Source: Candidatus Omnitrophota bacterium
Lineage (GTDB): Bacteria; Omnitrophota; Omnitrophia; Omnitrophales; Aquincolibacteriaceae
DNA length: 64,000 bases
Direction: 5' to 3'
Assembly (NCBI GenBank): GCA_022709525.1
Contig: JAKLIQ010000004.1
Location: 9,260-73,259 of the forward strand
Program-made: the position numbers and the translations under genes
Shown here: positions 33,892 through 50,079 of the stretch, piece by piece
Numbering within the stretch: position 1 is the stretch's first letter
How the letters are laid out: every line of letters begins with the position of its first letter
The notes under the pieces: model-generated
Databases searched by the model: none
Seen by the model: the letters and a program-made list of their open reading frames with translations, nothing else
What the model was told of the DNA's origin: nothing

Positions 33892-33899
33892 GCTATGCA

Positions 33900-33950
33900 C
33901 CCTGTACACACCCGGTGTGTACAGGGTGCCACACCCGGTGTGTACAGGGT
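33900..33950. repeat. REP element: a full 27-nt palindrome CCCTGTACACACCCGGTGTGTACAGGG (33900-33926) plus an adjacent truncated copy (33928-33950)
   Basis: Perfect 11-bp arms around a CCCGG core. The same sequence recurs at five or more other intergenic sites in this window. Confidence 0.9.
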
Positions 33951-36984: not shown

Positions 36985-36991
36985 CTTGGGA

Positions 36992-37050
36992 CCCTGTACA
37001 CACCGGGTGTGTACAGGGTTTTGTAATGTACACACCCGGTGTGTACAGGG
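36992..37050. repeat. REP doublet: a full palindrome (36992-37018, CCGGG core, so opposite orientation to the copy at 33900) plus a truncated copy (37027-37050)
   Basis: Same 27-mer family as at 33900. Confidence 0.9.
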
Positions 37051-37059
37051 TGAGGGCAA

Positions 37060-39766: not shown

Positions 39767-42700
39767 ATGCATAAGGGCCTTAGGGCGGTCTCAATAGCCA
39801 CCTTGGTGTGCTTTTTGACGACGCAGTGTGCCTGGGGCGCTCCCGGGGCTTCCATCGAATTAGCTGGGGCGCGCGAGTTGCCCGGCTATCTAAGCATCGA
39901 TGTTCCGGCCGAATTCGGGACCGTTGATGCGCTCTACGAAGCTCCTTCTTCCGCCAACCCTCAATTCGTCCTTCATATCCAGAACGCCCACGCGAATTAT
40001 CAGGCCCAGATGAAGATCAAGCAGCTGCTGGGCTACATGAATAAAAAATACGGCTTCAAAACTATTTTCGTGGAAGGCGCCTCCGAAAAACTCGATCCGG
40101 ATTATCTGCGTCTTTTCCCCGACGAAGAACGCAACCTCAAGCTTTGCGATGAGCTCGCCAAACAGGGAGAGCTTACCGGCGCGGAACTTTATCTGATGGA
40201 GGCGGACAAAGATATCGAAGCGCTCGGCATCGAACAAGCCGCGCTTTATAGATCGAATTATGAAGCGCTCAAAAAAGTATTCGGCGCTGAAGCCGATGTG
40301 AATCGATTTTTCAAAGGGTTTGACGGAAAACTCGACCGCATTGCTTCAAAAACCTTTACGCCCGAAACCCGCGAACTGATCGCGGATTGGAAGCGATTCG
40401 AGCAGGGCCGCCGGGAATTCATGCCGTTTGTCAAATCTCTCGCCCAGAAATCCAAGAAGATCCTGAACGTCGATCTTGAAAGCCTCTTTGCGCAAGTTGG
40501 CTGGCCGCAGATCACGCGCCTGTTGGTGGTCCAGCAGATGGAAAAAGAGCTGGACCGGGCCAAAGGTGTCGCCGAAAAAGAGACGCTTCTTAAAGCCCTT
40601 CGCGAGAAGGGGGCTTCCAAAGAGCTTATCGCGGCGGTCGAGAATTTCAGCGAAGGCTCCATCAGCGTCGGAAAGTCCACGCAGGAAGTTTCGCCGCGCG
40701 AGGTGCTCGAGCGGCTTGCTTCGGAAATGGGCCCCAAAGGCTTTAAATTCAGCGATTATCCCGCGTTCAGTCTTTATGCCGGTTACGTGACCCTCCGTTT
40801 CGAGCTCGATGCAAAAGTCCTCTTCGAAGAGATCGAATACCTTTTTACGCAGATACTCGATACTCTGGCGACAGAGCCTCAGCAAAAAACGCTTTTGGCT
40901 CTTTACCGGGATGGCGAGCTTTTGCGTAAATTGCTCCATCTTGAACTCAACCGGACGCAGTGGCGTGAAGTATCCACGGCTCAGGACCGGATCGCGGTTC
41001 CGTCACTTGTTGCACGCCTCAAAGCGGCGGTGCAGACCACAGACCGCAGACCACAGACTACTGACCAAAGCAAAAAAGATTCTGAGCTCCAGTCTCCAGT
41101 CTCCAGTCTCCAGTCTGTTGGCGATGTCATGCCTCCCGCATTCGCCAAAAAAATGGGTGAGATCTTTAACGCCGGAATCGAGTTCTATGGGTTTGCCCGT
41201 CAGCGCGAAAGTGTTTTCTATAAAGAGATGCAGACGGCGATGAGCGAGCGGAGGATCACGAAAGCCGTTCTTATCACCGGCGGTTTCCACACCGACGGCA
41301 TGAGCGACCTTTTCCGTGAGAACGCCGTCAGTTACGGCATCGTCACCCCGCGTCTTTCCGAAAGATCCAACGAAGGCCTCTATCGCCGCATTATGTTCCA
41401 GGATGAACATGTGCCTTTTAATCTGTCTTATTTAGAAGCGGCTCCTCATTTAGCCGACCTTGCCACGATTGAAAATCAGGGCCTTGTTCCGCTAGATAGT
41501 CTCAAGCCGATTCTTAAACAATTTATCGATGTCGGAAATTTCGGAAATCTTAACGAAGCTGCTATCGCAGCGTTTAATGCCATTACTACCGGTCCAAGAT
41601 ATAACGGCGTCAAAGTCACGCTCGAGCTGCGAGGGGATTATGTCAAAGTGAATGTCGTGGAAAAAGCGATCGAAGGTGGCGTTGCAATTGAATTCGGGTC
41701 GATGGCCCAAATGGCAACTCCGGAAGTTGCTGTTGCAAGGCAAGTGGCGCCTACTACACGTGCTTCTTCGCTCTGGAATTCATTGATGATCGGTTTGAGC
41801 TTATTTCTCGCAGCTCTCAATGGGTATGCGCAGGATGCCGGAGAATTTGTGGAATCATTTCTTTTGAATGGCCGGCCAGCGGCTCTTTATATTGTTAATA
41901 ATGATTACACCGGTGTTGAGAAAACGACGAATTTCTATAAATCCTGGGTAGCGACAACCCCAAAAACTTTAATGAAGGGCGATGCTGCCGTAGCGCTTGT
42001 TGAAGGAAATGGAATACGTTTAGGTTCAACCGGAGAGGTGGCTGTTGCAAGCGCCAAAACATCTGAGCCCGGATCTGACACGCAGAAGATGACGGCGCCC
42101 CTTGTGACCGAAACGGCGCTTTCTACGATTGAGATTGATACTACGCAAATTCCTGACTATATCGCAAATGAGATAGTTGGGAGGACCGGGAGCAACGTTG
42201 TTCAAATTTTTGACCCGAAGACAGGATCTTTTACGCCAGTCGCATTAACTCCTAAGTCTAGAGGCAAGAGAGGTCGCTCCGAGCTAAGAAAGATCATCCC
42301 CGTTGTGATCGCTGCTGCGCTTACCGCTAGCGCAGTTTTGGCTCAAGAATTAGCCAAAACTGCCACAGCAAAAGAAACGCAAAAGAAAGAATTTGTAGCC
42401 CCAGAAGTTAAAGAGCAGCCGATTCCCGTTGCTGCTGACGGAACGGTTAAGGTTCCTCAAGATCCAGAAAAAAATACGGATTATTATTTTATAGTGGGTG
42501 ATACCAAATTTGTTTTGTATTTAAATGATCCCAAACAGATCATCATTCATCCGGAAAGCGCCCCGGAAGATAATATGGGCTTTCCATACGAAAGCATTCG
42601 CATTTCAAAAAAGGATGTCGTAGGTTTAAAAGTTTCAACTGATGTAAGAACCGGACATCTTTTTGGTATTGGAAATGGGACCTTTAATATCGTTGTTCCC

Positions 42701-45700
42701 CTTTTAACCGATGGAACGACAGGTAGGCCCAAGGAAGCTCCCGCAACACGTCGTAAATTTGGAAGCGGCTATGCCGCTGCTAGGATGACGATGTTTCAGA
42801 CTTTGTTTTTGGTCGGGCTAATTAATTTCATGTCGGCAATAACAGTCAAAGCCCAAGATGCCGGAGAGTTTTTGGAGACTTTTCTTATGAATGGTAAGCC
42901 GAGAGCTGCTTTTATAGTCAATAGAGATTACACTCGCGTTGAATCAACTACGAACTACGTCTCATGGCAGGGCCAAACTCCTAATTATCCTTTGATGGCG
43001 GGGCAAGGCGGAGTTGTGCCTATCTCGGGAAATGCAATACGTTTGGCTTCAACCAGTGAGGTAGCAGCTGCAAAGTCGGCATCTCGACTTGCTACCGATT
43101 CAACTTCAAAAGCGATATTTGATCCCACTCGAGTTCCTGCCGACATCAGAGATAAATTTCTTGGAGCTGGCGCAACCGTTGTGCAAATTTTTGATGAAAA
43201 CACCGGAACATTTACGCCGATATCCTTGGTTCCAGTAGCCCCTGAAGAAGCAGCTGCTCCGGAAGCTGCCACGGCAGAGCCCGGCCTTGAAACACCCGTA
43301 GAGCCGGTCGGAATGGATGCCGAAAGGATTAGCACAGCTATTGATGAGATGGCTGTAGAAGAAATGCCTAGCAATATTACTTTGTCCGCCGAAGGCGATG
43401 CTTTAAGCGTTAATGTGTCTGTCCCCACTTCGGATTTTGGAAATCCTGTGATCCGGCCGCTACTGATTTCGCCGGTGCTTGCATTTGCCGCTTATGAAGG
43501 CGCGCTTTACGTGGTAGAGAGAAACGGGGTTTTTGACAAGTTTACTTCAGAAAACGTTTTGGTCGAACCTGTCAGCGAAGAGACGCCCATTACAGATGGA
43601 CGCTTTCAAATTCCTTTCGAAGAACTTCCTGAAGATCTTCAAAAGGAATGGTCCGGTTTTCGCTCCGAGGCGCGAGATGAAATTTCTCAATTAATCAAAG
43701 ATTCTGAAGCTTTCTTGGATTCGGAAGAGATAGAATCTCTTTTAGAACTTTGGGTCGAAACGGGTGACATCAGCAAGGTGTTAGAGTCATTACAAAAAAT
43801 GAAAGAAGATCCTGTGCCAGCCGTAACAAGTTTTGTGCCTATTTTGGCGGGGGTGGCGGGGAGTCTGGTCGCGGCCTTCATGTTGTTCCATCTTATATTT
43901 TCTGGTGCAATGCTTCATTCTGCTATATCAAGTCTAGGAACCACCGGACCAATAATGTTTGTTGGCGTGACGTCGATATTTGCAGGAGTGTGGCTGGGGG
44001 CAAAAGCCGCCGTAGAAACAATGGATAATAATACTCAGATCAGGGAACTAAGTGAAAAAATCCGGGAAACGCATCGCTTCGAAAAAGATGTCCCATTCGC
44101 GAATCTTAAACCGATATCCGGGGATACTCGTGAGATATTGAGAGATAAGCTAAACAAAATCAATGTGGTTATACGCGAACTTCTTGAAAAATATGAATCA
44201 AGGGATAATCTTCCAGAGGTTGAACGTCAATCCGTTTTGCCGGAATTGGCGCAAGCCCGAAACATTCACACTTCGATCTTGGAAGCTCTCAGCCGCTCCG
44301 AGGCGAGGGAATTGCCGGAAGAAACGCGGTCGCAGGTAACGCAAGGGTTAAAAGAACGTTCGCGAAGCACTGTCTTATATGTAACCCAAGCATGGCTAAA
44401 TGCTTCACAAGGGTTAGTGGAGTTTCTTCGAAGCACTGCGCAGTATACGGTTCGGGGCCCATGGGTCGTGATGTCTGTGTTGGCTGTTCTCGGCGCCGTC
44501 TTTATAGGCCCCGCATTTTTACTGATGGCGCTTCCCGTCTTGGTAGCAAGTATGTTGGCTCCGATTGCCGATCGTCTAACGCCTCAGCGAGCGCCTGCCG
44601 TCGTTCTCGATGAAGGGAATACCGTGCCGGCAACAACCTTTGCTCAGCTGGGATCGGCGGCCCAGACTATTATGCAGCCCATTTTTGGGTCAATGGCCAG
44701 GATGCCGGAGATCGTTGCAAGCCGAGAAGCTGTATGGAACGCGGTTAGCCGGCTTTATAATACGAATGAAAGGCAATATCCCTCCATCGAGGTGGTTGTG
44801 GTCAATGAAGGCATTCCTGATTTTAAGCAACAATATGCCGCAGGCCTATTTAGTGAACTAGAAAAACGCTTAGCGGAATTAGAAAACCAATCGCCGAAAA
44901 TTTACTCGATCCAATTTTTACCTGATGTCGACGGAAAAGCGTCGATCCGGGTTAACGTTTCTCCCCGCGCCGAGGCGAGATTGACCGATATGGACAAGGC
45001 CACTCTCAATATAGCGCTAGGTCGCGTTGCCACGGATAGAAACTTTAGCCGTTCTCTTCAACAAAAGGCCGGCGAATTAGCAAAAAAGCTGGATTCACCG
45101 GAGGGCATTTCAGAAGCCGAGTTAGCTGCCCAAATCGAAGGATTGCTTGCAACGATGCCGCGTGGTTTTACCTCAGATAATCAAATGCGACTACCCAACC
45201 CATGGTATGACCTGTTATCCAACGTCTTGGGCAAAATTGATCCCACAGCTACGGATCGTTTAATTCGTCCTTTTGCGATCGAACCCGGTCCGACTATGCC
45301 CGCCCTCGCCGAGGCGAGAGAGGTGCTTACAGCGGCTGATCTGCGGATGCTTTATATGAGCCGCGGCGGTGAACAGGATTATCGAGATGGAGTTGCTAAG
45401 TTTCATGATAGAGCTGATGCAGTAACGGGGCTTATTCCTCAGGGGGATACGGTTGCGGAACTTTCAAAGTTTACTGTTTACCCGGAAATGCAGTCGCTTT
45501 TCATCAACAAGATGAGATTGATTTTGGGGATGCTGCCCGGCGGCCTCGATGTTAGCGGCAGAAAGATTCTTTCGATTGGTCTCGGGGAAGGATCTTTTGA
45601 GAAAGCTATAAAAGATGAATTTCAGGCGCAGATATCAGGTTTTGAAATCTCAAAGGAGCTCGCCGCGCGCGCGCGTACAAAAGGCATCCAGGTTTCGGAA

Positions 45701-48403
45701 GAGCCCGCGGAGATCGGCATGCCAAAGTTGCCGGCCGCGTCGCAAGATGTTGTTTTGATCTCTGAGGCGATCGGATATTTGGATCTATCCGTAGTTTTCG
45801 CTGAAGCATATCGCGTTTTAAAACCGGGAGGGATGATCTTGATAGTACAATACCCCGTAACGTCCCAAAATGCGGGGAATATTTCGCCGACAGGGTTTAT
45901 TGACTACCCCTTCGACGATACGGTGACAGAAAATGGAGCAGTGGTCCAAGGGTACAAAATGGACCTAACAAACCTTCGTTTTGAGAACCCGAGTACTATC
46001 GCTCTAACAAGCCAGGAAGTTAAGAAGAAGGAGGAAGATGAAGGAATAACTTCGGATTGGTTTAAATATTTTAAGCGTGACGTTGTGGTTAATTTTCATT
46101 CTATGCAAAAGCCCGCCCGCGCCGAGGCGAGGACAGTATCCCCGCAACTGCTGGTGGTTGCGGCAAACGAGCGGCTCAGAAACGGAAATGTACCGCTTGC
46201 CGAACAAATGCCGTGGCTTACTGAGGAAGTGGGGTTTGGGAACAGATCTCAAGACCAACAGGAAGCAATATTAACTCGGATATTGTGGCTTAGAGAAAGA
46301 TCGGAGAATATCGAGAAGGTTCTTGCAAAACAGGATACGCCTCCTTCCGAAAGAGATTCTTTAACGCGTCTTTTTCAGAATTTTCAAAGCGAGCAAGTTT
46401 CCCTTGAATCCCGTCTTCCTCAGGGAGTGCTGGCCGCGCTTAATGTTGTTCGCGCCGAGGCGAGAATTCTTTCTGTAAAAGAAATTAATGAGGCAATCGA
46501 AGAGCACACGAGGAAAGTTCGCATTTTAACAATCGCTCCAAATGGGTCCAAAGTTTATACGGAGCCTTTTGAGGTTTCTTCGGCGGCAGCAGGAGCAACA
46601 GAAGGAACAAAAGACTTAATCCTATTTCGTTTAGCAAAATATGGTCGAGAGACCGGTGAAATTCGAAGTTTTCCTTCCGGAGAAATTTTGGGCATTGTGA
46701 GCGGATGGACCATGGAGACGCTGCGTGTTTATGATATTTCGCAGAAGCTTTTGTCGGAAAATCCTGAGTCGGAACTTTATATTGAAACCTACAAGCCGGT
46801 AAACGGGGGATATTTTGCAGATGTGAGATCGGGCAAGGTTAGATCGCTCGAATTTAATCCTGACAGTGGCTGGCTGACCGTTATTTGGGCCGATGGAGAT
46901 AAAAGTTTTTATCATGATACAGACCAACCTATTGCCGACACCGTGAGAACGTTGCCCTCAACGCAGGTTCCGATTCGCGCCGGGGCGAGGGGGCAAGCGA
47001 TTATCCTTGACGAGGGAAATGCCATTACACCAGAAAGTTTAAAAGTCATTTTAGAAACGGCTGGAAGCAACAATGTTACCTTATCTCAAGGACAGGTTTC
47101 TTATTCAGCGCCTGCAACCTCAGTAAGGGCGCAGTTAGATTTATTGAAGCCAAAAGGTCCTTTGACGCAAGCGGAGGTCATCAAGCTTTTGAATCTTGCT
47201 TCGGCTCGCGCGGACTTTGGAGTGGATCGGCCAAGTTCTTTTCCCGCTGATCTGAGCCCCGCAGTTTTCCAGAGGAGGGCGCCGGTCGTTCTTGATCCGG
47301 CCAACATCACTTCAGCAACGAGTTTAAAAATTGTATTAGAGGCAGCAGGAAATGCAGATGTGACATTATCTCAAGGAGAAGTGTCCTATTCGGCGCCAGC
47401 AACCTCAGTTCGGGAGCAATTGGATTTATTGGGAGCAAAAGGCCCTCTAACGCAGGAACAGATAATTAAATTATGGAATCTCGCATCGCCCCGCGCCGAG
47501 GCGAGGTCGATCGTGCAAGAGCGGCAGGATCTTGAAAAAGAGGTAGAAAATATTTTGTCTCAGGAGTATCCCGAGGAACTTCAAAAACTAAAGGAAAAAG
47601 CTTTGGAATTCGGCCTCGGGTCGCTCGATGAGGTTTTTGCGTATATTACGATACCAAGCTCTGGGGAAATGACGGCCAGGGGAGTGGTGGATAATCTGTT
47701 ACGTCTTGTTCAGGCCAAGCCGGGTGAAGTCAATTGGAAACATTTCTTCGCTGCGGCAATAGCTGCTCTTAAAGGTAATCCAATGATGGCGGTGTCCGAT
47801 ACTCCCGGCGGCACTGTGATCATGCGGGCTGCGGCGTTTGATTCAGTTGAACTTGAAAGTATGGCAACACGCCTCGAGACGAACACAGAATTAGTGGAAG
47901 GATATGTCATTCCCAGCGATGGCTCCGGGATAGATCAAGATAAGATCAGAGCCGATATTAATCGCATCAAGAACACTTTTGATCATAAGGGCCGTAAGAT
48001 CGGCGATCGTCTCAATGTTCAATTTGAAAAAGCTTCCAAGCTTTCCGAAAAGGCTCGAGCTCAAGCCGCAGCCATCAAGCGCGCGAATTCCATGAAAGAA
48101 AATTTTGCTGTGGCATTCCTGGTTGAAGAAGGTATCCAGACTACGGGTCAGTTCAACGGCACGGTTCTGCGCACCCAAGAAAAAGCAGCGAGGCAGAATG
48201 CGCCCGTGCGCAGTTGGCTTGCTTCCATGGTCGCGTTGAACGGCGTCGATCAGGTGAACCAATTGTTATTTAAACAATTGAATGACAGAAATGTTCTTAA
48301 ACCGAAAGGCGATGGGTACGAGATCGATGAAGCTTTGCTCAGTGGCCTCGCCAAGCTCTGGTCGGATATCTTGACCCAAAAAGCCACTTCAATCGCAGCA
48401 TAA
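39767..48403 (+). CDS. Giant (2878 aa) secreted/membrane multidomain protein of unknown function. It has a signal peptide, a TraB/GumN/Tiki-like N-terminal region (inference), two sets of tandem internal repeat modules, two TM clusters, and an embedded class I SAM-dependent methyltransferase domain.
   Basis: Signal peptide MHKGLRAVSIATLVCFLTTQCAWGAP. HIQNAHANY...IFVEGASE and ...LITGGFHTDG resemble the TraB/Tiki GTxH...E...GxxH motifs. Module A is at nt ~41828-42250 and ~42850-43235 (AQDAGEF..SFL.NG.P...VVQIFD..TG.FTP). Module B is at nt ~46996-47210 and ~47282-47505 (..LDEGN.ITPESLK..LE.AG...VTLSQG.VSYSAPATSVR.QLDLL...GPLTQ), with a partial copy at ~44596. TM clusters are at nt ~43815-44020 and ~44455-44580. 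MTase motifs ILSIGLGEGSFE / DVVLISEAIGYL / LKPGGMILIV are at nt ~45480-45900. GC content of the gene is lower than in neighbouring genes. Confidence 0.8.
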   Translation: MHKGLRAVSIATLVCFLTTQCAWGAPGASIELAGARELPGYLSIDVPAEFGTVDALYEAPSSANPQFVLHIQNAHANYQAQMKIKQLLGYMNKKYGFKTIFVEGASEKLDPDYLRLFPDEERNLKLCDELAKQGELTGAELYLMEADKDIEALGIEQAALYRSNYEALKKVFGAEADVNRFFKGFDGKLDRIASKTFTPETRELIADWKRFEQGRREFMPFVKSLAQKSKKILNVDLESLFAQVGWPQITRLLVVQQMEKELDRAKGVAEKETLLKALREKGASKELIAAVENFSEGSISVGKSTQEVSPREVLERLASEMGPKGFKFSDYPAFSLYAGYVTLRFELDAKVLFEEIEYLFTQILDTLATEPQQKTLLALYRDGELLRKLLHLELNRTQWREVSTAQDRIAVPSLVARLKAAVQTTDRRPQTTDQSKKDSELQSPVSSLQSVGDVMPPAFAKKMGEIFNAGIEFYGFARQRESVFYKEMQTAMSERRITKAVLITGGFHTDGMSDLFRENAVSYGIVTPRLSERSNEGLYRRIMFQDEHVPFNLSYLEAAPHLADLATIENQGLVPLDSLKPILKQFIDVGNFGNLNEAAIAAFNAITTGPRYNGVKVTLELRGDYVKVNVVEKAIEGGVAIEFGSMAQMATPEVAVARQVAPTTRASSLWNSLMIGLSLFLAALNGYAQDAGEFVESFLLNGRPAALYIVNNDYTGVEKTTNFYKSWVATTPKTLMKGDAAVALVEGNGIRLGSTGEVAVASAKTSEPGSDTQKMTAPLVTETALSTIEIDTTQIPDYIANEIVGRTGSNVVQIFDPKTGSFTPVALTPKSRGKRGRSELRKIIPVVIAAALTASAVLAQELAKTATAKETQKKEFVAPEVKEQPIPVAADGTVKVPQDPEKNTDYYFIVGDTKFVLYLNDPKQIIIHPESAPEDNMGFPYESIRISKKDVVGLKVSTDVRTGHLFGIGNGTFNIVVPLLTDGTTGRPKEAPATRRKFGSGYAAARMTMFQTLFLVGLINFMSAITVKAQDAGEFLETFLMNGKPRAAFIVNRDYTRVESTTNYVSWQGQTPNYPLMAGQGGVVPISGNAIRLASTSEVAAAKSASRLATDSTSKAIFDPTRVPADIRDKFLGAGATVVQIFDENTGTFTPISLVPVAPEEAAAPEAATAEPGLETPVEPVGMDAERISTAIDEMAVEEMPSNITLSAEGDALSVNVSVPTSDFGNPVIRPLLISPVLAFAAYEGALYVVERNGVFDKFTSENVLVEPVSEETPITDGRFQIPFEELPEDLQKEWSGFRSEARDEISQLIKDSEAFLDSEEIESLLELWVETGDISKVLESLQKMKEDPVPAVTSFVPILAGVAGSLVAAFMLFHLIFSGAMLHSAISSLGTTGPIMFVGVTSIFAGVWLGAKAAVETMDNNTQIRELSEKIRETHRFEKDVPFANLKPISGDTREILRDKLNKINVVIRELLEKYESRDNLPEVERQSVLPELAQARNIHTSILEALSRSEARELPEETRSQVTQGLKERSRSTVLYVTQAWLNASQGLVEFLRSTAQYTVRGPWVVMSVLAVLGAVFIGPAFLLMALPVLVASMLAPIADRLTPQRAPAVVLDEGNTVPATTFAQLGSAAQTIMQPIFGSMARMPEIVASREAVWNAVSRLYNTNERQYPSIEVVVVNEGIPDFKQQYAAGLFSELEKRLAELENQSPKIYSIQFLPDVDGKASIRVNVSPRAEARLTDMDKATLNIALGRVATDRNFSRSLQQKAGELAKKLDSPEGISEAELAAQIEGLLATMPRGFTSDNQMRLPNPWYDLLSNVLGKIDPTATDRLIRPFAIEPGPTMPALAEAREVLTAADLRMLYMSRGGEQDYRDGVAKFHDRADAVTGLIPQGDTVAELSKFTVYPEMQSLFINKMRLILGMLPGGLDVSGRKILSIGLGEGSFEKAIKDEFQAQISGFEISKELAARARTKGIQVSEEPAEIGMPKLPAASQDVVLISEAIGYLDLSVVFAEAYRVLKPGGMILIVQYPVTSQNAGNISPTGFIDYPFDDTVTENGAVVQGYKMDLTNLRFENPSTIALTSQEVKKKEEDEGITSDWFKYFKRDVVVNFHSMQKPARAEARTVSPQLLVVAANERLRNGNVPLAEQMPWLTEEVGFGNRSQDQQEAILTRILWLRERSENIEKVLAKQDTPPSERDSLTRLFQNFQSEQVSLESRLPQGVLAALNVVRAEARILSVKEINEAIEEHTRKVRILTIAPNGSKVYTEPFEVSSAAAGATEGTKDLILFRLAKYGRETGEIRSFPSGEILGIVSGWTMETLRVYDISQKLLSENPESELYIETYKPVNGGYFADVRSGKVRSLEFNPDSGWLTVIWADGDKSFYHDTDQPIADTVRTLPSTQVPIRAGARGQAIILDEGNAITPESLKVILETAGSNNVTLSQGQVSYSAPATSVRAQLDLLKPKGPLTQAEVIKLLNLASARADFGVDRPSSFPADLSPAVFQRRAPVVLDPANITSATSLKIVLEAAGNADVTLSQGEVSYSAPATSVREQLDLLGAKGPLTQEQIIKLWNLASPRAEARSIVQERQDLEKEVENILSQEYPEELQKLKEKALEFGLGSLDEVFAYITIPSSGEMTARGVVDNLLRLVQAKPGEVNWKHFFAAAIAALKGNPMMAVSDTPGGTVIMRAAAFDSVELESMATRLETNTELVEGYVIPSDGSGIDQDKIRADINRIKNTFDHKGRKIGDRLNVQFEKASKLSEKARAQAAAIKRANSMKENFAVAFLVEEGIQTTGQFNGTVLRTQEKAARQNAPVRSWLASMVALNGVDQVNQLLFKQLNDRNVLKPKGDGYEIDEALLSGLAKLWSDILTQKATSIAA

Positions 48404-48414
48404 GGCTTGATTTC

Positions 48415-48456
48415 CAAAAAGAGGGGTATGGAGCTTTCCATACCCCTCTTTTTTGT
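48415..48456 (+). terminator. Intrinsic terminator after the giant gene
   Basis: AAAAAGAGGGGTATGG-AGCTTT-CCATACCCCTC followed by TTTTTTG. Confidence 0.85.
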
Positions 48457-48496
48457 TTAAAATCTCTCTTGTTCTCTTTCCATCTTCTGCCTCTCA

Positions 48497-48524
48497 CCCT
48501 TGTACACACCCGGTGTGTACATTG
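48497..48524. repeat. Degenerate REP copy (CCCTTGTACACACCCGGTGTGTACATTG)
   Basis: Same family as 33900, with 3 mismatches. Confidence 0.8.
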
Positions 48525-48585
48525 TCGATAAATATATAAAATATTTACTTTAAATAATAATCATGTAGACTGTCTCCGCCGATAC

Positions 48586-48611
48586 CGCGGACACACCCGG
48601 TGTGGACAGGG
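48586..48611. repeat. Degenerate REP copy (CGCGGACACACCCGGTGTGGACAGGG) immediately 5' of the RAYT gene
   Basis: Same family. Confidence 0.8.
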
Positions 48612-48630
48612 TTTGAAAGGAGGGGAGAGC

Positions 48631-49278
48631 ATGGGATATCGAAAGGTCGCGTTAAAGACCGGGTGTCTTCATCATGTTTTTTCGAGGAGCATTGCGGGAT
48701 TTGAGATTTTCCGCTTTCGTGAAGAATATCTGAGAATGATGGAGACTCTCAAATTTTATCAAGTCGACAGGAGTGGAATCCGCTTTTCGAGAAAAAGCGC
48801 CGCTGACATTCAAAATTCATCGCATCCTAAGCCGGAGTTTCCCCATGTCCGGCTTATTGCATATTGCATCATGTCTACTCATGTTCATTTTATGCTTGAA
48901 CAGGTTATGGATGACGGGATCTCGAAATTTATGCGGTTAGTTCTTAACAGCTACGCCCGATATTTTAATACGAAAAGTGGTCGAAAGGGGCCGCTCTGGG
49001 AGTCGAGATTTGAAAATCGCCTTATTGAAACGGATGAATATGCGCTTCATCTTTCTCGATATATTCATCTCAACCCAACTTCTGCGGGGCTTGTGACGCG
49101 TCCCGAGGATTGGGAATTCTCATCCTATCTCGAATATCTGGGGGAAAACTCCGGCTCCCCACTTTGTGAATTCAAAAACGTCGTTTCCCTTTCGCCGGAA
49201 CTCTATAGGAAATTCACGGAGGACCGAAGCGATTATCAACGCGCGCTGCAGATGCTCAAAGCCCATCTGATCGATTGA
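48631..49278 (+). mobile_element. REP-associated tyrosine transposase (RAYT; IS200/IS605-like HuH Y1 transposase). The longest ORF starts at 48613; ATG 48631 with RBS AGGAGGGGAG is the more likely start.
   Basis: HuH motif (MSTHVHFML), catalytic Tyr region (LSRYIHLNPTSAGLV), and about 215 aa. It is flanked on both sides by REP palindromes (48586-48611 and 49280-49306). Confidence 0.85.
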
Positions 49279-49279
49279 A

Positions 49280-49306
49280 CCCTGTACACACCGGGTGTGT
49301 ACAGGG
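49280..49306. repeat. REP element (full 27-mer, CCGGG-core orientation) immediately 3' of the RAYT gene
   Basis: CCCTGTACACACCGGGTGTGTACAGGG. Confidence 0.9.
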
Positions 49307-49329
49307 TGAAAAAGGGAAGGAGAGGGGCA

Positions 49330-49357
49330 TTGACACCCGGAGCCCGGGGAGTATAAT
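49330..49357 (+). promoter_or_regulatory. Near-consensus sigma70 promoter (TTGACA, 16-nt spacer, TATAAT)
   Basis: cATTGACAcccggagcccggggagTATAATacg. Confidence 0.6.
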
Positions 49358-49363
49358 ACGCCC

Positions 49364-49444
49364 ATGCGAGACTTACGGGTCTCGACTCACCTGCAGAGGT
49401 TCGTGGCCACCAGATCCCCACTCGGTCACGAACCTCTTTTTTTT
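49364..49444 (+). ncRNA. Candidate small RNA (~80 nt) running from the consensus promoter to an intrinsic terminator
   Basis: A 5' hairpin CGAGAC-TTACGG-GTCTCG, then a terminator GAGGTTCGTG...CACGAACCTC plus T8 at 49396-49444. No ORF. It lies between two REP copies. Confidence 0.45.
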
Positions 49445-49572
49445 CAGCCATGAGCCGTTTTTTGCGAATGGACTGATCCGCCACGCTTTATGGCGGATGC
49501 TCAAAATGAGCTTTTTATGCGAATGGACTGCATTGACTTTGGTTTGTAATTTAACGGTAGTCAAGACTGCCC

Positions 49573-49639
49573 CATCCCGCCTCTGTGACGGCGGGATGAT
49601 AAGAATTGGGACTGATCCCCGCCTACCGGCAGGCAGGCG
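49573..49639. repeat. Second repeat family, copy A: hairpin CATCCCGCCTCTG(TGAC)GGCGGGATG plus GCCTACCGGCAGGCAGGCG
   Basis: A related copy lies at 57761-57821. A TTGGGACTGATCCCCGCCTACC-like motif is also found at 57888-57907. Confidence 0.6.
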
Positions 49640-49649
49640 CCAAACAGCA

Positions 49650-49676
49650 CCCTGTACACACCCGGTGTGTACAGGG
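49650..49676. repeat. REP element (full 27-mer, CCCGG core)
   Basis: CCCTGTACACACCCGGTGTGTACAGGG. Confidence 0.9.
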
Positions 49677-49707
49677 TATATTAGACCGCAGGATGGGAGA
49701 GTGACCT

Positions 49708-50079
49708 ATGGAACCCGATAAAGACATACGATTTACCGAAAAAAAGGTCGATGAAAGCTGGAAAGAACAGGCGGAAAGCGTCAAGGCGAAAGCCGCCCCG
49801 CCGCCGTCCGCGGCTGGCGCCAAACCCAAAACGGTCGAAACTTCGAAAGCGTTTTTAAATCTTGTCCAGTCTCTTGGGTATCAGGCGCTGATGCATTTGG
49901 GCGAGATCCCGGATCCCATGACGCAGCAGCGTGAGGTCAATACCGACGCCGCAAAAGAAACGATCGATCTTCTGGCCATGCTCCGCGATAAAACCCAGGG
50001 CAACCTGAGCGATGAAGAGAAGAAGATCCTCGAAACGCTCCTGGCCCAACTGCAGATCAAATTTTCCCAAAGCGTATGA
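49708..50079 (+). CDS. DUF1844-family protein
   Basis: ...FLNLVQSLGYQALMHLGEIPDPMTQQREVNTDAAKETIDLLAMLRDKTQGNLSDEEKKILE... matches the DUF1844 pattern. Confidence 0.6.
   Translation: MEPDKDIRFTEKKVDESWKEQAESVKAKAAPPPSAAGAKPKTVETSKAFLNLVQSLGYQALMHLGEIPDPMTQQREVNTDAAKETIDLLAMLRDKTQGNLSDEEKKILETLLAQLQIKFSQSV

Follow-up and report, generated by a model that had tools for sequence, protein, structure and literature searches.

A probable REPtron-like unit in Omnitrophota: a RAYT-like HUH nuclease gene and its symmetric palindromes

The association between REP-associated tyrosine transposases (RAYTs) and repetitive extragenic palindromes (REPs) is the best-known case of a domesticated transposase maintaining a population of non-autonomous repeats. 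To our knowledge, the RAYT/REP systems characterised so far come almost exclusively from Proteobacteria, Cyanobacteria and Bacteroidetes. Here, we describe a locus found in a 64,000-nucleotide stretch (the window, hereafter) of contig JAKLIQ010000004.1, from the Candidatus Omnitrophota bacterium assembly GCA_022709525.1, in which an open reading frame (ORF) at 48631-49278, encoding a putative single-tyrosine (Y1) HUH nuclease, is accompanied by copies of a short palindrome. Homologue names and the sole genome match of this palindrome also point to Omnitrophota as the host. We consider it likely that the locus is a REPtron-like unit, composed of a vertically inherited, single-copy, class-2 Y1 HUH nuclease gene of the RAYT-like kind and its cognate hairpin-forming palindromes. 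The element is real and of an essentially known type (REPtron/TIRtron), in a phylum where it had not been previously described: in the literature searched, no work was found linking Omnitrophota with RAYT, REPIN or TnpAREP.

The closest experimentally studied system is the Escherichia coli REPtron, formed by TnpAREP (RAYT, yafM; structure 4ER8) and its REPs (PMC2817692, PMC3333891, PMC3479197). TnpAREP is a monomer that binds the REP hairpin together with a GTAG tetranucleotide, cleaves at CT and becomes linked to DNA through a 5′-phosphotyrosine; strand transfer has been demonstrated, and the C-terminal tail of the protein is autoinhibitory (PMC3333891, PMC3479197, PMC8266576). Corneloup et al. 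(2021) revealed that TnpAREP groups acting on perfect palindromes recognise them differently, although those REPs still carry GTAG. Beyond E. coli, Quentin et al. (2018) proposed a classification in which class 2 TnpAY1 proteins bear the signature Y-x3-NP, as opposed to Y-x3-Q in IS200, and in which subclass 2.1 is recognised by the key motifs NHVH, W[EQ] and Y[IV]HLNP and by a C-terminal domain resembling a helix-turn-helix (HTH) (PMC6006769). This subclass corresponds to the TIRtron/TIRYT of Di Nocera et al. (2013, PMC3733652) and to Group 1 of Bertels et al., for which a low genome-wide frequency of flanking 16-mers has been reported (PMC5581495).

The HUH nuclease gene and its locus

The gene lies on the plus strand (48631-49278) as an intact ORF of 215 amino acids (aa). 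The ATG at 48631 is taken as the real start, since a ribosome-binding site (RBS), GGAGGGGAG, is found just upstream and the protein is covered in full (100%) by alignments with homologues of 214-215 aa. The initial annotation had read a HuH motif and a catalytic tyrosine in this ORF, and both are indeed present and aligned with their counterparts in 4ER8: T83-H84-V-H86 within STHVHFML, and Y144 with N148-P149 within RYIHLNP, giving the motif Y144-I-H-L-N148-P149. The protein also presents W123, and its C-terminal tail holds W161 and S164-S165. In 70 aligned homologues, the invariant residues included H15, T83-H84-x-H86, W123, Y144, N148-P149, W161 and S164-S165, among others. The ratio of nonsynonymous to synonymous substitutions (dN/dS), calculated against the two nearest orthologues, was 0.08-0.14; the gene is therefore not only intact but under purifying selection. 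On one metagenome-assembled genome, the NCBI annotation of this gene consists only of a 61-aa 'hypothetical protein' fragment.

Several comparisons place the protein closer to RAYTs than to the transposases of insertion sequences. The Pfam Y1_Tnp domain was recognised with 28.4 bits, above the gathering threshold of 23, and, among NCBIfam models, REP_Tyr_transpos was matched by all 70 homologues and the IS200 model by one of them. When the single sequence was searched against the PDB, TnpAREP from E. coli (4ER8) was the sole match, with the HUH and Y-I-x-x-N-P motifs aligned. With the profile of 70 homologues, 4ER8 was again the best match (1.5e-8), in an alignment spanning the HUH, W and Y motifs and the W-x-F-S tail, while ISDra2 reached 1.4e-4, and the ISDra2, IS608 and IS200 transposases altogether, at about 1e-4 or weaker, were aligned over the HUH half only. 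The same ranking was obtained from structure, in which the AlphaFold2 model of the protein, with a predicted local distance difference test (pLDDT) of 89.9, retrieved 4ER8 first in Foldseek (E 4.6e-8; template modelling score of 0.69 normalised to the target), followed by the TnpA structures of IS608 and ISDra2 (E 5e-5 or weaker, about 1e-4). By sequence and predicted fold, the protein thus appears nearer to RAYT/TnpAREP than to IS200/IS605 transposases. The family is large, its profile matching about 1,030 clusters (50% identity) at E <= 1e-30 and 19,691 at E <= 1e-10. A tblastn search against plasmids returned only remote matches of 25-41% identity labelled 'transposase', which are uninformative for the subclass.

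The protein shares with E. coli TnpAREP the HUH motif with a single tyrosine, the Y-x3-NP signature and the W-x-F-S tail. Unlike it, the Omnitrophota protein has 215 aa instead of 165, at about 15% identity, carries T instead of D/N before the HUH motif, and, in the predicted model, presents a longer tail of two helices as well as ~26 inserted aa between helix A and strand 2. Resemblance to subclass 2.1/TIRYT is found in the motifs Y-I-H-L-N-P, W-E and x-H-V-H, in the length above 200 aa and in an SS motif in the proximal tail. In contrast with that subclass, the residue preceding HUH is a family-invariant T rather than N, and no HTH was detected: Pfam found no C-terminal Bac_DnaA_C, HTH_23 or HTH_28 domain in the protein at E <= 1, and the C-terminal part of the AlphaFold2 model comprises just two helices. 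The key motifs also differ from those of subclass 2.6 (YIH[QN]NP, NH[LIV]H) and class 3 (Y-x4-Q), the hosts of which are Bacteroidetes, and Planctomycetes/Acidobacteria, and not Omnitrophota as here. The protein can be assigned to class 2 and appears closest to subclass 2.1, in an incomplete match that relies on published motifs and not on subclass profiles.

The genomic context of the gene is conserved over long evolutionary distances. In the window, the ORF is placed between a giant gene encoding 2,878 aa (39767-48403) and a DUF1844 gene (49708-50079). An identical HUH protein was found on several metagenome contigs with the same neighbour genes, and the order giant gene, HUH gene, DUF1844, LPG synthase, aroQ and accBC was kept in orthologues of 76%, 71% and 54% identity (the 76% orthologue and the P0002 and P0024 contigs were available as gene tables, without DNA). 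Orthologues of 51-53% identity have different downstream genes, yet are still placed 3′ of a giant gene. More generally, the HUH gene lies 3′ of the giant gene in the window and in contigs L010, L013, L015 and L020, in P0002 by its gene table and probably in P0003, and 5′ of it in two lineages, at a distance of about 1.3 kb in the P0024 contig and immediately adjacent in L021; the downstream neighbourhood differs in P0003, L015 and L020. A giant gene adjoins the HUH gene in all the lineages examined, with products ranging from 2,197 to over 4,166 aa, and these genes are homologous, with 47-48% identity over the N-terminal ~650 aa in L015 and L021. Synonymous divergence between the HUH orthologues is saturated, and the gene occurs once in the window. 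With this conserved locus and single copy, the HUH gene behaves as a domesticated, vertically inherited gene and not as an insertion sequence. In these respects it also resembles the E. coli REPtron, in which a single-copy gene occupies a fixed locus with hairpins on both sides, one of them directly at the stop codon.

Palindromes around and away from the gene

The palindrome has the form ACCCTGTACACAC-C[C/G]G-GTGTGTACAGGGT, with 29 nt including the outer A...T pair. Its 27-nt core is CCCTGTACACAC followed by CCG or CGG and by GTGTGTACAGGG. The length of 27 nt originally proposed was correct as delimited, and the centre, which had been written as CCGG, was one base too long. With up to three mismatches, the core was found at 33900, 36992, 37024, 48498, 49280 and 49650, against zero occurrences expected from 100 shuffles, and repeat finding (family D1) extended the set to eight copies in the window: four around the HUH gene, two after rplT and two after pheT. 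These represent three loci and six distinct sites, all within 16 kb. As single-stranded DNA (ssDNA), the perfect copies fold with about -14 kcal/mol (z about -5.3). The element thus agrees with the description of REPs as hairpin-forming extragenic palindromes of 20-40 nt, having 29 nt, intergenic positions and z = -5.3. No Rfam match was obtained for the palindromes at gathering thresholds or at permissive E-values.

Perfect copies are asymmetric only at their central base; the copies at 36989 and 49277 have a G there, and the remaining six a C. The two core orientations noticed in the initial annotation do occur, in the sense of a G or a C centre, and the distinction rests on this single base. 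Outside the doublets, all copies are singlets, and each unit is itself palindromic, so that 'inverted' hangs on one base. In contig L027 from Logan, which ends inside the repeat, the equivalent of 33900-33926 has the G-centre form, where all other assemblies have C; this G centre would come either from a genuine flip of the strand or from an assembly path that was turned round within the palindrome.

Around the gene, the outer upstream copy (48495-48525, C centre) is 81% identical to D1 and has degenerate feet (CCCTT...CATTG), retaining a stem of 9 bp (-7.7 kcal/mol, z = -3.2); its orthologous counterpart in L031 also ends in CATTG. The proximal upstream copy (48582-48612, C centre), also 81% identical to D1, has a decayed left arm. 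It probably belongs to the 5′ untranslated region (UTR), since it ends only 18 nt 5′ of the ATG, and counterparts are present in L010, L013, L020 and L031. The downstream copy (49277-49307) is perfect, has a G centre, overlaps the stop codon TGA (49276-49278), starting at its last base, and forms a hairpin of -14.2 kcal/mol (z = -5.3); palindromes abutting the stop codon are likewise found in L010, L013, L020, L021 and L031. With C at the centre of both upstream copies and G at that of the copy at 49277, the two flanks in the window are in inverted orientation by that one base. The claim that the palindrome flanks the ORF on both sides was thereby borne out, with the downstream copy and at least one of the upstream copies in opposite orientation, and needs amending for the proximal upstream copy, which is diverged and unfolded. 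A second downstream copy (49647-49677), perfect and with a C centre, lies 30 nt before the start of the DUF1844 gene and is lineage-specific, being missing at the equivalent place in L010 and L013.

The remaining copies are found 12-15 kb from the HUH gene, where perfect palindromes follow rplT and pheT. In the rplT-pheS intergenic region (rplT end 33891, pheS start 33956), a perfect C-centre copy (33897-33927) is overlapped by another with a truncated left arm (33920-33950). Between pheT (end 36984) and a RarA-like gene (start 37060), a G-centre copy (36989-37019) precedes a C-centre one (37021-37051), the left arm of which is shortened; this doublet is inverted and REPIN-like, forming one hairpin of 25 bp with an 11-nt loop (-31.8 kcal/mol, z = -8.5). 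All copies are, therefore, intergenic. A role as intrinsic terminators was rejected, as a scan for the terminator consensus found none at any palindrome within 48300-49800. A strong terminator-like hairpin, AAAAAGAGGGGTATGGA...TCCATACCCCTCTTTTTT, symmetric enough to serve both strands, occurs at 48409-48461, straight after the giant gene; since that gene has its own hairpin, the palindromes are not needed as terminators here.

Gene and palindrome are also linked in the orthologues. In every orthologue with DNA available, the same layout was observed, in which a palindrome, an AT-rich promoter-like stretch, a second palindrome, the RBS, the gene and a last palindrome succeed one another, and the last one abuts the stop codon in six of seven lineages. 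Each lineage carries its own version: the 75% orthologue (P0003) has ACCCTGGCCACACCCGGTGTGGCCAGGGT, referred to as the GGCC variant, the 71% orthologue CCCCTGGACACACCCGGTGTGACCAGGGT, the 54% orthologue ACCCTGTCAAATCCGGGATTTGACA..., the 53% orthologue ...ACTTTACACACCTGGTGTGGAAAT..., the 56% orthologue a 42-nt form, CCCCTCTAAAACCGGGTTCTAGAACCCGGTTTTAGAGGGG, and the 51% orthologue a bulged form of about 42 nt. When 15 copies were aligned, eight of the 14 stem pairs had changed on both sides, and 85% of the cells were paired, compared with 25-48% when the partner was slid, while the CC-N-GG centre was invariant. The flanks of the gene in L020 are true inverted repeats, since reverse-complementing the downstream copy yields the outer upstream one exactly, down to a stem mismatch. 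The compensatory variants and the conserved layout support vertical inheritance and the co-evolution of gene and palindrome, and agree with the cognate pairing first suggested for this locus.

At the locus of the 75% orthologue, a comparison of L030, L032 and L033 with L031 revealed an insertion polymorphism right at the REPtron. In some contigs, the promoter region and the outer upstream palindrome have given way to a gene for an IS4-like DDE transposase (602 aa, minus strand), starting about 15 nt before the proximal palindrome.

The palindrome also occurs beyond this locus, as had been proposed: besides the copies at 33.9 kb and 37.0 kb, exact copies were detected in L001-L003, contigs that otherwise share nothing with the window and carry no HUH gene. 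The GGCC variant that flanks the 75% orthologue is likewise dispersed, at L003:1571, and L032, which carries that orthologue, comes from the same metagenome as L002. The copies at the rplT site are identical in five independent metagenome contigs, and L024 and L026 share the pheT doublet without a change. In three k=31 Logan contigs, the assembly stops precisely at the palindrome that follows rplT, which is the effect that a repeated 31-mer would have. A scan of GTDB species representatives returned one copy, in Omnitrophica RIFOXYB12_FULL_50_7, and a scan of JGI metagenomes returned two contigs; both scans exclude the genome of the window and did not return L005, which carries the palindrome, so that they are uninformative on copy number. 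Dispersal of the palindrome is real, and its abundance may be low.

These repeats share with E. coli REPs the occurrence at other intergenic sites and the co-evolution with the gene. Unlike them, the palindrome is perfect and two-fold symmetric, without the 5′ GTAG or the bulge that TnpAREP requires, and the copy density observed is far below that of the roughly 600 REP copies of E. coli; canonical REPs have a high dispersed copy number, typically above 100, compared with the eight copies within 16 kb found here. As in TIRtrons, the flanking inverted repeats are unrelated to GTAG REPs, TIRtron repeats being in some cases self-complementary and moderately repeated, but the GGGGWSAS motif of TIRtron repeats is missing from the palindromes of this locus. 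Flanking structures without GT[AG]G and with copies elsewhere in the genome are also known from the atypical REPtrons of subclass 2.6 and class 3, and a symmetric palindrome architecture from the 'double-foot' REPs of subclass 2.4 (PMC6006769).

Competing explanations and a putative mechanism

A number of observations weigh against the interpretation of this locus as a REPtron-like unit, and some of them concern the protein. The NCBIfam equivalog model for RAYTs (NF047646, REP_Tyr_transpos) reached 64.1 bits over residues 72-164 only and missed the cut-off of 80; the profile check suggested in the initial annotation thus passed the threshold of Y1_Tnp and fell short of that of this model. The residues after the catalytic tyrosine are NPTSAG, in which only N, P and G of the motif NP(L/V)(R/K)xG of Nunvar et al. 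are kept, and the candidate site for the N-terminal Thr of the same authors is YH(V/I)F-[S/T/A/N] and hence variable. Others concern the palindromes. The left foot reads (G/C)NACCCTG and the right foot CAGGGT, and the tetranucleotide GT[AG]G (GTAG/GTGG) was found at neither foot in any copy or lineage examined. As ssDNA, the proximal upstream copy forms no stable hairpin (z = 0.08). Of the doublets supposed to be REPINs, the pheT pair is inverted and folds into one hairpin, whereas in the rplT pair (33897-33950) the second copy is a truncated direct repeat that overlaps the first at a period of 23 nt, and is not inverted. Quentin et al. found no REP-like structures beside subclass 2.1 genes (PMC6006769), whereas here every lineage has palindromes.

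Copy number and mobility complete these objections. In the 72 kb examined (the window plus 8.2 kb added downstream, reached through the protein at the downstream edge), the palindrome is absent from 1-33896 and 49678-72182, which amount to about 56 kb, and about 70 kb of DNA flanking the gene in four relatives contained no copy away from it. The high abundance implied by the initial annotation, which spoke of the genome's REP family, is consequently not supported. Presence/absence polymorphism at the rplT and pheT sites was not observed among eight strain-level contigs, and no recent movement was caught. Finally, mobility of the palindromes by the HUH protein is suggested by analogy with studied systems. 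Strict membership in the canonical RAYT/REP group is not established, owing to the lack of GT[AG]G, the NCBIfam cut-off and the motifs of Nunvar et al., and the descriptions of TIRtrons and atypical REPtrons (PMC3733652, PMC6006769) fit equally well.

Among the alternatives, the one that best withstands the data, though we regard it as unlikely, is that the palindromes are mainly cis elements of the HUH gene, acting as operators or UTR hairpins in autoregulation or as stabilisers of transcript ends. The locus would then be a 'TIRtron' never grown into a genome-wide REP family, with its distant copies as rare by-products or local duplications. In six of seven lineages, one copy separates the promoter region from the RBS and another sits at the stop codon, as such elements would, and both the lack of dispersed copies in the relatives and the confinement of all window copies to within 16 kb of the gene are in keeping with it. 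It also has precedents, since Di Nocera et al. (2013) described flanking inverted repeats that are partly self-complementary and moderately or not repeated (PMC3733652), and Nunvar et al. (2010) reported RAYT homologues with flanking repeats that are not genome-wide (PMC2817692). Cis elements do not account, however, for perfect copies of 29-33 nt located 12-15 kb away, after rplT and pheT, and in unrelated contigs of another genome, and the three Logan assemblies broken at the palindrome suggest that further copies exist. Moreover, the proximal 5′ copy has decayed in the window and the gene is nonetheless intact.

A related proposal, to which we attach little credence, looks to the giant gene. 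According to it, the family of ~215 aa with THxH and YIHLNP motifs would be a domesticated HUH nuclease found throughout the phylum, with the giant gene, and not a REP population, as its conserved partner; the two genes are always neighbours and have in common an atypically low GC content at third codon positions. The palindromes would be fixed working sites, for instance for ssDNA processing, regulation or rearrangement at the giant-gene locus, and the few dispersed copies their side products.

It is very improbable that the HUH gene and its hairpins constitute an active insertion sequence of the IS200/IS605 type that moves as a unit. The Y1_Tnp domain and the hairpin flanks would suit it, given that IS608 and ISDra2 share the Y1 HUH fold and recognise subterminal hairpins in ssDNA, and so would the position upstream of the giant gene in two lineages, the other downstream neighbours in P0003, L015 and L020, and a GC content at third codon positions (GC3) of 0.47, under the 0.62-0.79 of the housekeeping neighbours. 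The low GC3 is nevertheless common to the neighbouring giant gene (0.476), and the gene is single-copy, at a locus kept across orthologues of 54-100% identity despite saturated synonymous divergence. IS200/IS605 elements are multi-copy and mobile, with obligate dimers, often tnpB, and distinct ends, none of which was seen here: no tnpB is found nearby, the same palindrome stands on both flanks instead of distinct left and right ends, and the tyrosine signature is Y-x3-NP instead of the Y-x3-Q of IS200 transposases (PMC6006769), whose model touched a single one of the 70 homologues.

It is highly improbable that the palindromes are binding or recognition sites for another, unrelated protein, for instance a regulator or restriction-modification enzyme that binds DNA with two-fold symmetry, and lie beside the HUH gene by coincidence: the perfect dyad symmetry and the invariant CC-N-GG centre would suit such a protein, and covariation alone cannot separate a hairpin from a dimer-binding site, but seven lineages with differing palindromes all have them on both sides of the HUH gene, and the best structural relative of the HUH protein was crystallised bound to exactly such a hairpin.

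For the REPtron-like unit, which we favour, a mechanism may be proposed by analogy with E. coli TnpAREP (PMC3333891, PMC3479197, PMC8266576). The HUH protein would bind the palindrome extruded as an ssDNA hairpin, for instance at a replication fork, and Y144 would cleave near the hairpin foot, with the metal held by H84, H86 and N148, generating a 5′-phosphotyrosine link. The cleaved strand could then be rejoined elsewhere, so that the palindrome would occasionally be copied or locally duplicated in trans while the gene stays put. Both DNA strands would offer a nearly identical substrate to the nuclease, since the palindrome is symmetric save for one central base. Recognition would probably rely on the invariant CC-N-GG apex and the usual CCCTG/CAGGG feet, in replacement of the GTAG guide. 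Additionally or alternatively, expression of the HUH gene itself may be under the control of the copies at the stop codon and in the presumed 5′ UTR.

Downstream elements and implications

Between the HUH and DUF1844 genes, other elements were noticed. A consensus sigma-70 promoter (TTGACA-16-TATAAT, 12/12) at 49330-49357 on the plus strand precedes a unit of ~80 nt (49362-49444), which comprises a hairpin at its 5′ end, an unpaired ACUCACCUGC segment and a terminator hairpin whose 14-bp stem precedes U8 (-33.6 kcal/mol, z = -4.9). This unit is identical at 79 of 80 positions in L010 and L013, where the flanking DNA is about 71% identical and the synonymous sites of the neighbouring gene are saturated. 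It gave no Rfam match at gathering thresholds or permissive E-values, and no transfer RNA or transfer-messenger RNA was recognised in it. It is apparently an unannotated, ultraconserved unit resembling a small RNA (sRNA), and may represent a leader or attenuator of the DUF1844 operon or a free-standing sRNA. In L013, it is located about 40 nt upstream of the DUF1844 gene, and it belongs to the DUF1844 block rather than to the REPtron, because it is absent beside the HUH gene in L015, L020 and L021. For the same reason, and as no tnpB is present, its identification as a TnpB-associated omega-RNA was rejected.

An ORF of 148 aa at 49275-49721 on the plus strand, annotated as a gene in one ENA record, is probably spurious; it has no family match and overlaps two palindromes, the consensus promoter and the sRNA-like unit. 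A second repeat of ~60 nt, with 85-86% identity and a hairpin CATCCCGCC...GGCGGGATG, is shared between the window (49548-49612) and L003 (7025-7090), in both cases upstream of a gene start. A small palindrome (49616-49638) also recurs in L003, and the stretch 49445-49646 is missing from L013.

The locus would extend to Omnitrophota a REPtron architecture that is conserved over deep divergence and built on a symmetric, GTAG-free hairpin of apparently low copy number. In practical terms, the palindromes break short-read assemblies of Omnitrophota, and the HUH gene is poorly annotated. The locus offers a natural test of how such nucleases recognise their substrate without a guide tetranucleotide, and of whether flanking palindromes are kept for the spreading of repeats or for the regulation of the gene itself.

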